This document shows positions 49,401 to 55,400 of a DNA stretch of 64,000 nt, in pieces (position 1 is the stretch's first letter; every line of letters begins with the position of its first letter). This DNA is from Escherichia coli (lineage in GTDB: Bacteria > Pseudomonadota > Gammaproteobacteria > Enterobacterales > Enterobacteriaceae). Position numbers: made by a program. The stretch lies in the NCBI RefSeq assembly GCF_045037415.1, contig NZ_CP173438.1; one strand, written 5' to 3'.

Positions 49401-52400
49401 CCAATTTGTCGATGGCTGAGTCCAACACCGTATTTAAGCCTAAGAATTTCTTTAAGTTTTCTCATAGAAATTGGAACTGTTGGCATAGGTATCCTTTACC
49501 GGAATGGCAAAAGATACAGATCAACACACCTGTGAAGTTCCAATAACATTGATGGAGATCACTGAATAACAAAATGAGTCAAAAGTGATCTCCATCGATG
49601 TTATTCAGCGATCTGTTCAAATGTTATTACCCGATCTCGATGGAAGTTATTGAGTGATCTCCTTTCATGAAAATACGCATACGTTGTTGGACACGCTCCA
49701 GGTTGTTCAGCCCGGGCGTTTGGGTCGCAGCTGAGCGCTTGTTTCACGCTCGCTGCTTCCACGTTAAAGCCAGTAAACAGAACCGCCAGAAATAACATCA
49801 GGGTATGTAAACGTTTCATTGTAAATATTCTTCCGTTGTAAATGGCGCTGGAAAATTTCTCATCAGTGAAACCTTCCGGAAATTCCCCCCCCTTGTATGA
49901 TGTATATCGCCAGTATTTTATTTCATCCCGGATGTAATTTTTATATTTCCCGGCACGTGCAATAACGCTGACCAGAGATATAAGGCTCATTAATAACTTT
50001 ACAGGTAATTGCATAATTAAATTTCCAGTGAGTGAATTGACAGGTGAGGGGTAAAACTTTCTCTCAGGTAATATATATCTGAAAATATTTTCAATAACAC
50101 CAGCCAGGAAAAACACCACCACAGGCGGTGGCGTTTCTTTGGGGCGTCTTTATTTAATCCGGGCCATCGCGTTTCTCAGTGCCAAATCTGCCTCTTCCGT
50201 TATCTCCAGACTTTTCTGCAACACCGTTTCTGACCGGGACAGTACCTGACGTGCTGCCAGCGGTTTCCGGATATGCTCCATCGTCAGCATCGTGTCTTCA
50301 TAGCCCTGCTGACGCCAGGCGTCGGTATGTGCCAACGTGAAACTGAGCAGACCGCCGCTGTTGTCACCATCACCTGCATATTTCAGCCTTTTCCGGGGAC
50401 GGATCTCAAGGATTGTGGTGACCGGAAAAGCCTGGCGATCCCATAAAGAACCGTCACTCAGATGCGTCACAATCACCATATTGCATCCGGCATCGACCAG
50501 AGGCGTCACAGGGGTATTTCCCTGCATATTTCGCCATCCTCCCATACCACCATCACCGAACATTGTCCCCTGAACCTCACGGGGACGGAACAGCAGGGGC
50601 AGCGCGGCTGACGCAAGCAGAGCCTCTTTCTGCTGTCCGCGGGGCAGGCTCTGGATATGCTGAAAAACGGCGTTTTTCGTGGTTCCGGCACCCAGTTCAG
50701 CACGAATGCAGTCAATAATATCCTGCATGCCCCCTTCTGTGGGGTACAGCGACACATACAGCGGTAGCCCGTCTGCCAGAGCATCAGTATCAAGATAATG
50801 ATCCAACAGCGCTGTCAGGGGCTCATCTGACAACAACGGCTGAGCCATCAGATTGTCAAACCCGTTGAGTATCGATATATGGCGAAGAAGCGTCGTAAGC
50901 AGTGCTCCTGCACGTCCGGGGATCTGGCAGAGGTTCATTGCCTGGAACAATTTTTTCAGCAATGAAAAGTAAACCAATCGGTTTACCGACAGCACCTGAT
51001 TATTCCCCAGATGATCCCAGAGCGCCTCCAGGCGTACGGCAGCTTCTGACAGATCGGGAGAGGCCGCGATAATGGCACCATTGAATGCGCCAATGCTGGC
51101 CCCTGAAACCATGCTGATCTGTGTACCACACTCTGCCAGTGCCTTAACCACTCCCGCCTGATAAGCGCCCACCGCCCCGCCACCGGACAGCACCAGCCCC
51201 GTTTTCATTTCTGTACTCATCCAGCCCCCTTCTGAAATATTTCATCGACCATACTTTCAGAGAGGCGTTCTGCAGAGCAGAGGCGAGGCATGCGAACCGG
51301 TAAGTGTTCTGCAGCCTGCGTGGTTGACCAGATCACCGGATGCTGCTCTTCACTGCACCAGTCTCCCAGCCAGTTAATCGCGTCATGCCACTCGTTATCT
51401 GCCTGCTCCCGGCCCTGACCACCAAGCCAGTCCAGAGTGTTCAGACGCACGGTTGCACTACCGCCACTCTCCTGTGCCATCTGCGTTAATGCTTTATGTC
51501 TGAGAATATCCAGTAGCTGGTTAACCTGGCCTGTTTCGCCCTGACGTATCACATCACCAAACGCGCCCCAGCGAAGCTCTTCAAGCGCCACATAACAACG
51601 TCCGGCAGGGGAAAATGACGCATATCGCCCGGCGCTCCACCATGAGAATATCTGCTCAAGATGTAACTGCGCCCGCTGAACCTGGTCAACACGGTGGAGT
51701 TTTTCTTCAAGATGATTCAGTTTATGGTGAACCTGATCGGCCAGGATGAGTAACTGCTCCCGTGTATCTGCGGAATAATGCGCCAGCCTGGCAGTATCAC
51801 TGACCAGTGAACTGACCCTGTCGTTTACCCGGGTAATCGCGTAGTTTGTGGTGGCAAGTGACGTTGTCAGCTCCGTCAGCCAGCGCAGGGACGCCTCAAG
51901 GCCCTGTGCAACCGAAGCATTGATGGCATTCTGCCGTGCAGCGCCTTCGCCGGTCAGTCCCTCTTTTAAACGCCGGAAGAACGTGCGCTCTCCGGCCGTG
52001 CGGATATGCTCCTGTGCAACATCGATTCCGTTTGCGAAATCAACCACAAATTTTTCAGGAAGACAGGTGAGTACCTGACATACCCGGTTATCAGCAATTT
52101 GTTGAATAAATGGTGAAGTCACAGCATTGTCTCCAGCTCTTCCCTCAGCGCCTTACTGTCAGTAATGAGCTCAGGAACCCTTTCATTTAATGCCTGAAGT
52201 CTCCTGGTAAGCCGTTCCTGTGCCTGCTGATCGCGTTTATGATCTTCAGAGCTCTGAATCAGCGTGTTACGCAGTTGTTCAACTTTCTCCCTGAATGCGC
52301 AGAAAAAGGCATCGATTTCCTGGCGGACGGGCTGGTTAATATCCTGCTCAATGGATGCCTGCAGCTCCCCGAAATATGCCCGGGTCAGTGACATAACTTC

Positions 52401-55400
52401 CTTCCTGACGGTGTTGATATTGATAACACTGCGGCTCACATCCTCTTTATAGGTTTCCCAGCCCCAGTCACTGGTGCCAAACGCTCCACAAATCTTTCCC
52501 CATAAACCACTCTGCCGACGGCGACGGGTGACGGTCTCCGTTCTTTCCTCCATAAGCGCACTCAGATTTGTTTTTACCGCGAGCCGGGTTTGTAACTGAC
52601 TGACTGCCGGAAAACTGATTTTTACGGTAAAGCCCTCATCCTCCAGGCGGGTATTGATGCGACCGGCAATGTTTTCTGTGGCGTACAGGGCCGTGCCACG
52701 AAAACCTGTTTCAATCCCGCTGACGATTTTCTCCAGCTCAGGCCGGAACTGTGCTTCAGCCTCACGGTGCAGGCTGGTCACGGTCGATTCGATTTGCGTC
52801 ATCAGTTCAAGGGCTTCCCTGCGATCACTGAATTTTATTTCGGGGCTGTCGGGATCAAAGTCCCGCATCCTGTCATGCTGATTTCCGGTTCCGAAAATAT
52901 CGAGAAAGAAAGCGAATGCGTTTCTCTCCCGGGGCTGCGCTGAATTTTCTTCCTCCAGCATTTGCTGTTCTTTGCGTTTACCGCTTCTGAAATAGTCATT
53001 CAGCTCCTCTTCCAGTGAGGTGCAGACCCCCGTCAGTAATTCCCGGGTTCTGGCATCGATCTCCTCCATGGCCATTCTGACATCAGCGGTCACCTGCTCC
53101 TGACAGTCTGCTATTTCCCGGATATCCTCAAGCAGGCTGGTGATATGCGCCTGCAGTGACTGAATACTTTGCATCAGCCCCTGATGGCGTAACGACAGGT
53201 ATTCACTGATATTTTCTGCATTCTGCATCAGTTTTGCGGCGGCAGAATCAACCGCCAGTGCCGCAGCTCTGGAGTGTGAACTCAGTATGACTTCCGTTAT
53301 CAGTTGATCGATAAGTGAGCCTTCCCACAGGTCTGTCGCCCCTTCAGTTGCCAGTTCGCTGTCTTTACAGACGTAATCTTTTTTCATGCGACCGAAGGCT
53401 TCCCTGACAAAATCATCGACCCAGGCTTCATCAACAGGAAGGGTTCCGTTTTTCCGTAACTCATGAAGCGCACGGTTAGCCAGGTATGCCTGGCGTGAGG
53501 ATCCGGGATAAACGCGGGAGGCGGGCAGCACATCGCTGTTCAGCATTGCCGGTACCTTCTGACAGACTGCATCAGCCCCATCGCCATTACGGTCTTTTTC
53601 ATCAAATTTATTGACCAGCACAAACAGGCGGCCGACAGACACATCAGCAATGGCATTAAGCTCTTTACGAACCTCCTCATCGGCTTTCGAGTTCATCTGG
53701 GTGTAGTCCATCACCGCCAGCACCGCAGAGGCTTTCTGCAGTTGATCCCGCATCATCACTTCCATCTGCGGTTGTCCGGCTTCATTAGGGCCGGGGGTAT
53801 CCAGCAGTGTGAGTGTTCCCTGGCATTCATCCATCCCCACCAGATGGCTGAATTCCACGTCGATCACCGGCAGTTTCTGCACTTCTGCGTATTCATCAAA
53901 AGGAAATTCACTCCCCATTGCCGCAGCAAGACGAACCAGATCGTTTAACGATGCCAGTCCGGTAAAGATTTCCTCCTCCCCGTGGTATTCATTTTTGAGC
54001 CAGCCATCATCCGTCAGAATATCCAGCAGTTCGCGGGTATCCCCGGTTTGCTGCAGGGTCTGTGCGACCTGCTGTCCTGCCGGGGTGGCGAGTTTTTCCT
54101 GCAGTGTGATTAATAAATTGCGGACAGGCTGAATATGTTCCAGATGGAGAACCGGCTCAGTTTTTCCGGGAACGTGGCGGATGAGCGTCGGTACAGAGGT
54201 CATGGGGCGGTTACGGTTAGGCAGAATTTCCTGCCCCACAATGGCGTTGATGGTGGTTGATTTACCTGCTTTCATCGTGCCGACAACAGCCAGCACCATC
54301 TCCCTGCGGGCGGTTTTGATTTGTTCGCCCTCCAGCTCCTCAATTCTTTTCAGTGCTTTCTGTTTATCAAAAAGCAGTCTTTTTTCGTTCTTACTGTCAG
54401 ATAACACATCTGGCTCCTCAACCATTTGCCGGAGCAGATTAATGTTCAGTTGCAAAAGTCGGTCGGCTTCATCACAAAGCAGGGCGATGTTCTTTTCGTG
54501 CATTATTTAACCTTCCTGAGACGCATTTTCATGACAACCACGGAGGAGGTCATTTACCACAAACGATCGTTTATAACGATCGATATGATAGTAACGATCG
54601 ATGTATTCTATTAACTTGAAAAACACAACGCAAGGGGACACCCCGGGTATGGCTGCGTTTGCATAGTGTTTTCATGGAGTTAAAAATCTGTAACAACAGC
54701 CTGGTACATCACCACCGGGTTCAGAAGAAAATCCAGTTCCATACCGCGCGGGCAACAGAAACCACCGAGTCACGGACGGCGCGCAGAACCGTGCGTGCAA
54801 CAGAGGCAATGCAGACACTCTCCGCCGTGTCAAATATCCGGTCCACCGCACCGGTAAACTGTTCACGGGTCTGAGTGCGGACAGACTCCGTGCGCAGTTC
54901 GTCCTGCAGGCGTGTCATCAGAGGGATGGCGGCATGTCCGGGAAGCACTGTCATGAGTGCACTGACCGGGGTGACCTCCCCCTGAAACAGTGCATTACAG
55001 AGTGAGGATTTACCGGCCCCGCTTTTACCCATAATGCCAGGCACGGGTTCGTGACGGGTGAGTTTGCGCAGATGTTCCAGGATGTGACGGGAAATCGGGT
55101 AAGGCAGGGAGGAGAGCGGTTTTTCAATTGCCTCAATGGCATCAGACGGATTCATACATGTATTCCCAGTGAAAAAAGACAAAACCCCGTGCACCGGAAA
55201 GGTGGCGGGGGATTCACGGAGATAATATCTTTCTGAAATTATTTTGAATGCAGGTATATGTGGCTGATTTGTATCAGCTAATGAGTACAGGTCTGAATCT
55301 AATCTGACAGTCCGCTTTGTGCCAAAGGCGGACGCTCAAGTAGATACTGTCCTGACAGTATGCGGTAATCAGAGTTGTTATATATTACTTGCGTCCAAAC

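Follow-up and report, generated by a model that had tools for sequence, protein, structure and literature searches.

What might an operon do that joins a dynamin-like GTPase to a patatin-like phospholipase on the accessory DNA of Escherichia coli? The operon in question occupies positions 50150-54503 of a 64,000-nucleotide stretch of contig NZ_CP173438.1 (assembly GCF_045037415.1), referred to here as the window, in whose coordinates all unqualified positions are given. A sequence-only reading of this DNA had described a GTPase, an orphan protein and a patatin, and had put them forward as a candidate novel system of defence or membrane remodelling. The analysis presented here identifies the three genes as a self-contained, horizontally mobile module, which in this strain stands behind a homologue of the agn43 phase-variation switch.

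The operon and its co-inherited genes

Calling of open reading frames (ORFs) returned exactly three minus-strand genes in the interval, all intact and where the earlier reading had placed them, followed by a hairpin:

52119-54503, minus strand: gene 1, dynamin-like GTPase (794 aa, ATG start)
51217-52122, minus strand: gene 2, all-helical protein of the YjcZ/RdcB family, presumed adaptor (301 aa, GTG start)
50150-51220, minus strand: gene 3, cytoplasmic patatin-like phospholipase (356 aa, ATG start)
50108-50130, minus strand: intrinsic-terminator-like hairpin, CACCGCCTGTGGTGGTG then TTTTTCC, about 20 nt after the patatin stop codon

Adjacent genes overlap by 4 bp at both junctions, as had been noticed from the sequence, but the shared letters are ATGA only between the YjcZ and patatin genes; the GTPase/YjcZ junction reads GTGA, with GTG as the start codon. 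The hairpin proper spans 50130-50114, with the T-run after it, and marks the end of the operon. Given the overlaps at both junctions and the terminator-like hairpin behind gene 3, the GTPase, the YjcZ-family protein and the patatin are encoded in one operon. Such overlaps are widely retained, with a 4-bp overlap at the dynamin-YjcZ junction in 22 of 31 trio loci, and at the YjcZ-patatin junction an overlap of 4 bp in 15 and of 8 bp in 8 of the same 31.

Evidence that the three genes belong together comes from a scan with a YjcZ alignment of one genome per species (100,044 species), which yielded 79 loci that were then split by local phmmer. In each of the 79, the YjcZ gene is directly preceded by a GTPase ORF. 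The 49 loci of the core rdcAB type, all from Enterobacteriaceae and with core-type YjcZ scores of 135-168 bits, consist without exception of a GTPase-YjcZ pair that lacks a patatin, whereas every one of the 30 non-core loci (181-667 bits) carries dynamin, YjcZ and patatin genes in co-linear order, the GTPase ORF being cut by the contig end in some. The non-core loci come from Escherichia albertii, Pantoea, Erwinia, Budvicia, many Pseudomonas, Allochromatium, Thiodictyon, Macromonas, Aquaspirillum, Comamonadaceae, Paenacidovorax, Gallionella and others. Exact protein look-ups gave the same arrangement in Pectobacterium, Methylomonas, Klebsiella and Plesiomonas, and a patatin-containing trio is also present in distant family members (loci L097/L098 and L102). 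The three-gene synteny for which a survey of homologues had been proposed is thus found throughout the non-core loci, on varied and often mobile flanks. All three genes are under purifying selection, with a ratio of nonsynonymous to synonymous substitution rates (dN/dS) of about 0.1-0.4 in the more divergent comparisons; the patatin reaches about 0.7 when the closest alleles, with a dS of only about 0.02, are compared. None of the three genes is disrupted in any of six E. coli alleles. Co-linearity in 30 of 30 non-core loci, together with purifying selection on each gene, argues that the trio is not a chance arrangement.

The module is accessory and mobile, as the sequence-only reading had held. 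It is covered to at least 80% in 2442 of 5426 complete E. coli genomes (~45%), in up to five places per genome, and its carriers include O157:H7, Nissle 1917 and lineages of extraintestinal pathogenic E. coli. Klebsiella, Enterobacter and E. coli also carry the three genes on IncF plasmids, where nothing but the trio lies between the flanking insertion sequence (IS) elements. Elsewhere, the trio is flanked by an integrase and DUF927 (Pseudomonas aestuarii), by an integrase and an excisionase (Plesiomonas) or by CP4-type genes (Pectobacterium), and in Allochromatium it lies between ileS and lspA, alongside Uma2 and Fic genes. When a fourth conserved gene was sought in 33 clustered loci, none was recurrent; 7 of them, and L097/L098 besides, have an upstream WYL-type regulator that matches the PADLOC WYL models, and in Gallionella 13 bp separate the end of this regulator from the GTPase gene. 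A collection of phage records held no homologue of the middle protein, and the idea that these are prophage genes was rejected, the carrier being a CP4-type integrative island or a plasmid.

A few loci depart from the common layout. In a metagenome-assembled contig of Synergistaceae (L035, 1290-6356), the ORF upstream of YjcZ-patatin encodes 1689 aa, about twice the usual GTPase, which could be either a tandem-fused dynamin pair or an artefact of assembly or ORF calling. The distant trio L102 (4057-8431, GCA_042436635.1) has a shorter GTPase (633 aa) and a longer YjcZ-like protein (426 aa), extended at its N terminus by a coiled coil; it looks as though a portion of the helical stalk had passed from one gene to the other, and an Xre-type regulator lies upstream. 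In Methylomonas koyamae (L005, 7617-7916), an extra ORF of 99 aa with no Pfam match stands between the GTPase and YjcZ genes, which makes it the only sampled locus with an interrupted GTPase-YjcZ junction. An apparent Dynamin_N-YjcZ fusion (P0200) was rejected as a deletion fusion at a core rdcAB locus.

The large-GTPase motifs singled out by the earlier reading are all present in gene 1: G1 at G75-T83 (GTMKAGKST, with the P-loop lysine K81), G2 at T102, G3 at D235-G238 (DTPG, within DTPGPNE) and G4 at N298-D301 (NKFD). The core residues of each are invariant across 36 GTPase homologues. Pfam Dynamin_N (PF00350) matches with an E-value of 2.3e-17, and the NCBIfam model for CrfC (NF007368) aligns along the full length (E 9e-165), as does K-12 RdcA in BLASTP (34% identity over 765 columns). 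Since the CrfC score of 549.9 bits falls far below the curated cut-off of 1146 despite the full-length alignment, the GTPase classifies as a full-length paralogue of RdcA/CrfC (YjdA), not as its orthologue. An AlphaFold2 (AF2) model built from the 36 homologues, with a mean predicted local distance difference test score (pLDDT) of 77.8, places the G domain at about aa 68-335, preceded by N-terminal helices and followed by a long stalk made of helices 413-521, 561-622 and 696-793, in agreement with the helical C-terminus noted before. Foldseek ranked bacterial dynamin-like protein (BDLP, 2j69, 8.6e-13) and SynDLP (1.2e-12) first, followed by IniA and mitofusins, and LeoA came only 37th. The "LeoA-type" likeness suggested by the sequence-only reading is therefore not the nearest one, for the closest sequence family is CrfC/RdcA and the closest folds are those just named. 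The G1-G4 motifs, the helical neck or trunk that flanks the G domain and the fold match are those of the dynamin superfamily.

Two stalk loops in the AF2 model, at aa 524-546 and about 632-695, are hydrophobic and of low confidence, and contain FAFFLDIF and GLWGKICGAFGTSDWGW; the model suggests that the GTPase may bind a membrane through them. Among six E. coli alleles that were compared, the GTPase is the fastest-diverging of the three components, with hot spots at aa 361-400, 521-575 and 665-692. The second of these is an indel region that in some alleles (L088, L008) holds another copy of SGLWGKI, a motif otherwise restricted to aa 664-672. The allelic variation in E. coli is concentrated in the two hydrophobic stalk loops (aa 521-575 and 664-692).

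The middle protein, which had been taken for an orphan, proved to have a family. Pfam PF13990 (YjcZ) matches it over model positions 1-272 of 272 (E 2.5e-71), RefSeq names it "diguanylate cyclase regulator RdcB family protein", and it aligns with K-12 RdcB over the full length at 31% identity, all of which assigns it to the YjcZ/RdcB family. Gene 3 matches the patatin family (PF01734, E 7.3e-25), and the three patatin motifs that had been read from the sequence were recovered, namely an oxyanion loop at G13-G18 (GGGxxG), the nucleophile Ser42 within G40-G44 (GASIG, of the GxSxG type) and Asp223 within D223-G225 (DGG). These motifs, the catalytic dyad included, are kept in at least 95% of 37 trio sequences, and the protein appears catalytically intact by motif, as a predicted phospholipase A. 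The closest solved chains, PlpD (5fqu, 2e-12), VipD and ExoU, match only over the N-terminal catalytic loop (aa 5-68).

The upstream switch and the island around it

The operon is preceded by 217 bp (54504-54720, minus strand, up to the GTPase ATG) that align to the yeeP-flu intergenic region of K-12. This region opens with the 3' end of a truncated yeeP-like gene, which is nearly free of mismatches to K-12 yeeP. The following elements are relevant here:

54605-54633, minus strand: putative sigma-70 promoter (-35 TTGCGT, 17-nt spacer, -10 TAGAAT), directly upstream of the operator
54566-54602, minus strand: OxyR-consensus operator with three Dam GATC sites, homologous to the agn43/flu switch
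54721-55194, minus strand: truncated yeeP-like small GTPase gene of the CP4-type island, given for context and outside the system

The first bases of the GATC sites lie at 54599, 54581 and 54568, that is, at -96, -78 and -65 from the GTPase ATG; three such sites fall within 35 bp, against an expectation of 0.2 per 60 bp. The operator scores 16 of 20 against the OxyR consensus, the highest value in the 64-kb window, compared with 14 of 20 for the K-12 agn43 site. Across the three GATC sites, the window reads ACATCGATCGTTA-CTATCATATCGATCGTTATAAACGATCGTT and K-12 reads AAAACGATCAATATCTATTTTATCGATCGTTTATATCGATCGAT, and the spacing from GATC-II to GATC-III is the same as in agn43. The TAATAGAAT block is also identical to that of K-12, and the promoter is positionally homologous to the agn43 promoter; its placement follows the K-12 annotation, in which the isrC/flu transcript begins within the homologous OxyR site, 2 nt from its edge, whereas a generic promoter scan chose another weak match nearby. 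The arrangement that characterises an agn43-type switch, three GATC sites inside an OxyR-consensus site that overlaps the promoter and transcript start, is accordingly found here, and the operator is conserved in E. albertii as well as in further genomes of E. coli. In agn43 itself, OxyR binding and Dam methylation compete at the GATC sites, and this competition underlies the phase variation, in which a lacZ gene inserted immediately behind agn43 takes part (PMC3764049). Competition between OxyR and Dam is likewise plausible at the operator described here. An Rfam scan of 49800-55400 gave no match, including none resembling IsrC in the leader.

Two configurations of the trio relative to the switch occur. 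In configuration A (yeeP, switch, trio), seen in this window, in strain NCCP 13983 and in E. albertii, the trio holds the position that flu has in the CP4-44 element of K-12, directly behind the switch; the junction upstream of the operon, formed by the yeeP 3' end and the switch, was recovered from 1980 of the 5426 genomes. No copy of the trio was found in the CP4-44 and rdcAB regions of K-12 that were examined. In configuration B (yeeP, switch, agn43 or cah, a 110-bp gap, trio), found in the O157-lineage strain PA2 (L089, 10355-13314) and in K99B (L090, 10355-13584), the adhesin gene intervenes. Three GATC sites lie upstream of cah in configuration B, and in K99B the agn43 switch has lost one of its three. 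A scan of the 110-bp gap revealed no promoter-like or terminator-like signal, which suggests that the trio is co-transcribed with cah or agn43. The trio is probably phase-variable in E. coli, and since the operon has taken agn43's place behind the Dam/OxyR switch, its expression in this strain is expected to be confined to a heritable subpopulation. Literature searches returned no paper linking OxyR/Dam phase variation to these genes, and the agn43-type switch upstream of the trio is a new, previously unreported feature.

The island context given by the sequence-only reading agrees with the RefSeq annotation of a 100%-identical locus, which lies in an island at the CP4-44 position adjoining yeeA/tmaR, has cbtA/cbeA, a JAB/RadC gene, an antirestriction gene and DUF932 as neighbours, and carries an insertion of ISEc12 (IS21 family) directly downstream of the patatin. 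In the window, ISEc12 (47184-49486) splits a hypothetical gene of 227 aa into 46751-47101 and 49670-50014; the gene is uninterrupted in NCCP 13983 (L088, 5182-5865), and its product has no PHROG or PADLOC match. Because both this gene and the next one (136 aa, 46325-46735) are missing from O157-type islands, they are placed outside the conserved module. On the other side, beyond the yeeP fragment, the plus strand at 55584-60590 encodes an intact TonB-dependent receptor and an ABC transporter operon composed of a substrate-binding protein, a FecCD permease and an ATPase; the K-12 counterpart of the receptor gene, yoeA, is a pseudogene disrupted by IS2.

Weighing what the operon may do

We propose, with an even chance of being right, that the GTPase acts with its RdcB-like adaptor as a nucleotide-gated switch, located at the inner membrane, that licenses the patatin, that the whole serves defence against phages or other mobile genetic elements, and that its expression is epigenetically gated. 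A GTPase of the BDLP/mitofusin class and a helical partner of the YjcZ/RdcB family would together make the switch, and its output would be a cytoplasmic patatin-like phospholipase A in place of the diguanylate cyclase DgcE; the patatin is cast as the output because it accompanies the pair in 30 of 30 non-core loci and in none of the 49 core loci, with its catalytic dyad conserved. By way of its hydrophobic stalk loops, the GTPase would associate with the inner membrane; it would also oligomerise, while the adaptor would couple it to the patatin and hold the lipase inactive. A trigger at the membrane, most likely the ejection of a phage genome or protein or a perturbation of the envelope, and possibly a fall in GTP, would then alter the nucleotide or oligomeric state of the GTPase, and the licensed lipase would hydrolyse inner-membrane phospholipids, so that the infection is aborted or the cell arrested. 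Anti-phage or anti-mobile-element defence appears to be the most probable biological role.

A variant locus bears on the nature of the sensor. In L099 (7001-9630; ENA ERZ19489111 contig_1), which has no dynamin, a patatin gene follows with a 4-bp overlap a gene for a 532-aa fusion of JukA to YjcZ. The JukA domain of this fusion matches PADLOC PDLC04113 (E 8e-74) and is DUF3944/Cbp3-like, with a hydrophobic region; the locus lies between parC and a Transposase_31 gene. JukA is an experimentally validated sensor of jumbo-phage ejection, and the preprint that describes it also reports JukA fused to Ras-like GTPases, to patatin and to a coiled-coil domain of unknown function (bioRxiv 10.1101/2022.09.17.508391); our guess is that the "UD1" domain of that preprint is YjcZ. 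Fusions of JukA to Dynamin_N-type GTPase domains were also found in a search of 5.8 billion proteins. Because JukA stands in the place of the dynamin in L099, YjcZ plus patatin may constitute an effector arm that can be used by different sensors at membrane sites. It is possible, and we advance it only tentatively, that the dynamin GTPase with its RdcB-type adaptor is a nucleotide-gated membrane sensor of phage entry interchangeable with JukA, which licenses the patatin to abort infection, and that the whole makes up a widespread but so far unrecognised kind of immune system. In E. coli it would be bet-hedged by a Dam/OxyR switch captured from agn43, the costly or suicidal defence being confined to a subpopulation. 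By extension, the core RdcA/RdcB-DgcE system would be its domesticated relative, or the immune module would derive from the core pair.

The trio has been noticed and computationally predicted by others, and is an uncharacterised variant assembled from known families. The earlier view that the combination matches no named system held in so far as PADLOC v2 has no match for it, but the combination had already been described: a transcriptomic study from 2026 (PMC12922286) reports this very operon from two E. coli MP1 islands as a "putative dynamin" phage defence system, with no functional test. Moreover, the GTPase is likely to be among the DefensePredictor predictions, whose tables list 794-aa (WP_000544634.1) and 798-aa (WP_000544741.1) E. 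coli proteins named "dynamin family protein" as predicted novel defence proteins (PMC13092281); the former is probably an allele of this GTPase, to judge by its identical length, name and species. The word "dynamin" is absent from Table S6 of that work, which apparently holds the named and tested candidate systems. In PMC12922286, two colonies were compared per genotype and the up-regulation of the operon did not track the lytic-lysogenic decision. As this two-colony design fits the colony-picking pitfall described for phase-variable agn43 (PMC3764049), agn43-type switching offers an alternative reading of the reported "prophage-induced up-regulation", one that is compatible with the data and not proof. 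As a side observation, a study of olaquindox-selected strains of ATCC 25922 (PMC7696260) lists 122 variants in "crfC", 75 in "rssA", 10 in yeeP and 3 in yjcZ, which most likely reflect cross-mapping of reads between paralogous copies of the trio and not real mutations.

The evidence for a defence role is circumstantial: it comprises the neighbouring integrases, IS elements and WYL regulators, the JukA-YjcZ fusion, the DefensePredictor listing, the description in PMC12922286 and the fast divergence of the GTPase among E. coli alleles. Several points weigh against the proposed defensive switch. None of the three proteins has a significant match in PADLOC v2, only weak partial ones, or any match in PHROG; searches of the literature found no functional study of the trio, and those combining dynamin, patatin and defence returned nothing relevant. 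The closest characterised relatives, RdcA and RdcB, serve housekeeping signalling and not immunity. WYL regulators and integrases are marks of mobile DNA in general and not of defence alone, and the linkage in E. coli to an adhesin gene and a phase switch could equally mean a surface or biofilm function. Membrane binding is read from hydrophobic loops of low pLDDT only, and the paralogue RdcA is reported to be soluble (PMC6510439). Furthermore, the JukA-YjcZ fusion was a singleton in the 5.8-billion-protein search, the match of WP_000544634.1 to this GTPase is one of length, name and species alone, and the spacing from GATC-I to GATC-II is 1 nt shorter than in agn43.

The same evidence can be turned towards other functions. 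The fold class of the GTPase is that of the membrane-fusing BDLP, SynDLP, IniA and mitofusins, and its stalk has hydrophobic loops, so that a non-immune role in membrane maintenance may be considered, in which the dynamin-like protein would tether, fuse or repair the inner membrane, the patatin would supply lysophospholipids or clear damaged lipids at the same site, and both would in E. coli be co-regulated with Ag43 in a programme for surface, vesicle or biofilm life. Bacillus subtilis DynA and LeoABC of enterotoxigenic E. coli (ETEC) are membrane-acting precedents in literature cited by PMC12922286, and the position of the trio, 110 bp after cah/agn43 in the O157 lineage and K99B and behind the agn43 switch itself here, fits such co-regulation. 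Outside Escherichia, however, the trio occurs without any autotransporter, and its plasmids, IS-bracketed cassettes, integrase islands, patchy presence (45%) and exchange with JukA are a better fit to a conflict system; protection of the DynA type is itself phage-related, which gives this alternative a partial overlap with the favoured defensive switch. We consider a non-immune role of this kind unlikely.

Full-length homology to RdcA and RdcB, whose sole demonstrated role is the activation of DgcE (PMC6510439), together with the link to a phase-variable adhesin locus, would also suit a biofilm theme, with the GTPase pair docking on DgcE or another MASE1 protein as a second input that modulates cyclic di-GMP (c-di-GMP) and the biofilm matrix. 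The patatin would then be an accessory or a passenger, yet its strict co-inheritance (30 of 30 against 0 of 49) and the overlapping stop and start codons make it more than a passenger; the proteins share no more than 31-34% identity with the core pair, the trio travels on mobile DNA in Chromatiales, Methylococcales and Betaproteobacteria, and L099 retains YjcZ and patatin without the GTPase. This explanation strikes us as improbable. The resemblance of the patatin to the virulence lipases PlpD, VipD and ExoU, and the residence of the trio on plasmids and on islands adjoining the cbtA/cbeA toxin-antitoxin pair and antirestriction genes, might instead point to a selfish addiction or exclusion module of the island or plasmid, or to a toxin of the ExoU/VipD/PlpD type directed at a host or competitor, with the GTPase pair as chaperone or immunity protein. 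Against this, those matches cover only aa 5-68, the locus has neither an autotransporter or T5d domain nor secretion-system genes, and a GTPase of 800 aa is an unusual antitoxin; we would give such a module a very slight chance.

Although about 45% of complete E. coli genomes carry the cassette, and it is also found on plasmids of Klebsiella and Enterobacter and throughout Gamma- and Betaproteobacteria, the function of its proteins is so far only predicted. If the nucleotide-gated lipase switch does act in defence, it would add a dynamin-gated phospholipase to the immune repertoire, provide a functional handle on the YjcZ/RdcB family (for which there is no solved structure and no known fold relative), link the housekeeping RdcA/RdcB-DgcE pathway to immune-type modules and serve as an example of epigenetic bet-hedging for a candidate suicide defence. 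In practical terms, an agn43-type switch would bring colony-to-colony differences in expression, for which phenotypic tests must control; cloning the operon with its native upstream region, as had been proposed, would carry the switch along and confound plaque assays.

Relation to known systems

Several characterised systems share parts with the trio. Eleos (formerly "Dynamins", LeoA plus LeoBC) and ETEC LeoABC, like the window locus, place dynamin-superfamily GTPases on accessory DNA; phage defence or membrane vesiculation has been reported or proposed as their role in work that PMC12922286 cites. By name and by its PADLOC models, Eleos consists of dynamin-family proteins with no YjcZ or patatin component, whereas the window has one GTPase with YjcZ and patatin. 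An assignment to Eleos was rejected, the PADLOC LeoBC model (PDLC03841) reaching only E 3.1e-5 and 21 bits over aa 29-89, with no LeoA match. CapV of the cyclic oligonucleotide-based antiphage signalling system (CBASS) resembles the role proposed for the window patatin, as a cytoplasmic patatin encoded in an accessory operon that acts as a membrane-degrading effector. CBASS was likewise rejected: the operon and its flanks contain no ORF for a cyclase of the cGAS/DncV-like nucleotidyltransferase (CD-NTase) type, and the patatin scores 18.3 bits with the CapV-type model NF041079, whose cut-off is 200. Since a cyclic-nucleotide signalling gene is lacking, activation of the patatin would have to be mediated by protein.

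The JukA-YjcZ and patatin genes of L099 make Juk resemble the trio, and the idea common to both is a sensor at the membrane site of infection that brings in an effector. Juk itself was rejected as an assignment, for no window protein matches JukA and a dynamin-like GTPase occupies that position. As regards regulation, the agn43 (flu) switch drives an autotransporter in K-12, whereas the switch in the window precedes the GTPase operon, both standing directly after yeeP.

The closest comparison is with RdcA (CrfC/YjdA) and RdcB (YjcZ) of K-12, which belong to the same two families and are encoded in the same order by overlapping genes, at 34% and 31% identity to the window proteins. Assignment to the RdcA/CrfC equivalog was rejected on the score given above and on the absence of the core context. 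In K-12, RdcA binds RdcB and the MASE1 domain of DgcE, RdcB does not bind DgcE, and the GTPase cycle of RdcA gates the activation of DgcE; the K82A variant of RdcA still activates DgcE, T103D does not, which the authors explain by proposing that RdcA is active when free of nucleotide (PMC6510439). The two residues concerned, the G1 lysine (K82) and the G2 threonine (T103) of RdcA, are conserved as K81 and T102 in the window GTPase, which differs from RdcA by an extra hydrophobic loop region in the stalk. The core pair is a two-gene unit at the yjdM-rdcA-rdcB-proP locus and never has a patatin, whereas the clade of the window always has one as its third gene, on mobile DNA. The presumed output differs in the same way, being c-di-GMP synthesis via DgcE for the core pair and, for the trio, a lipase.

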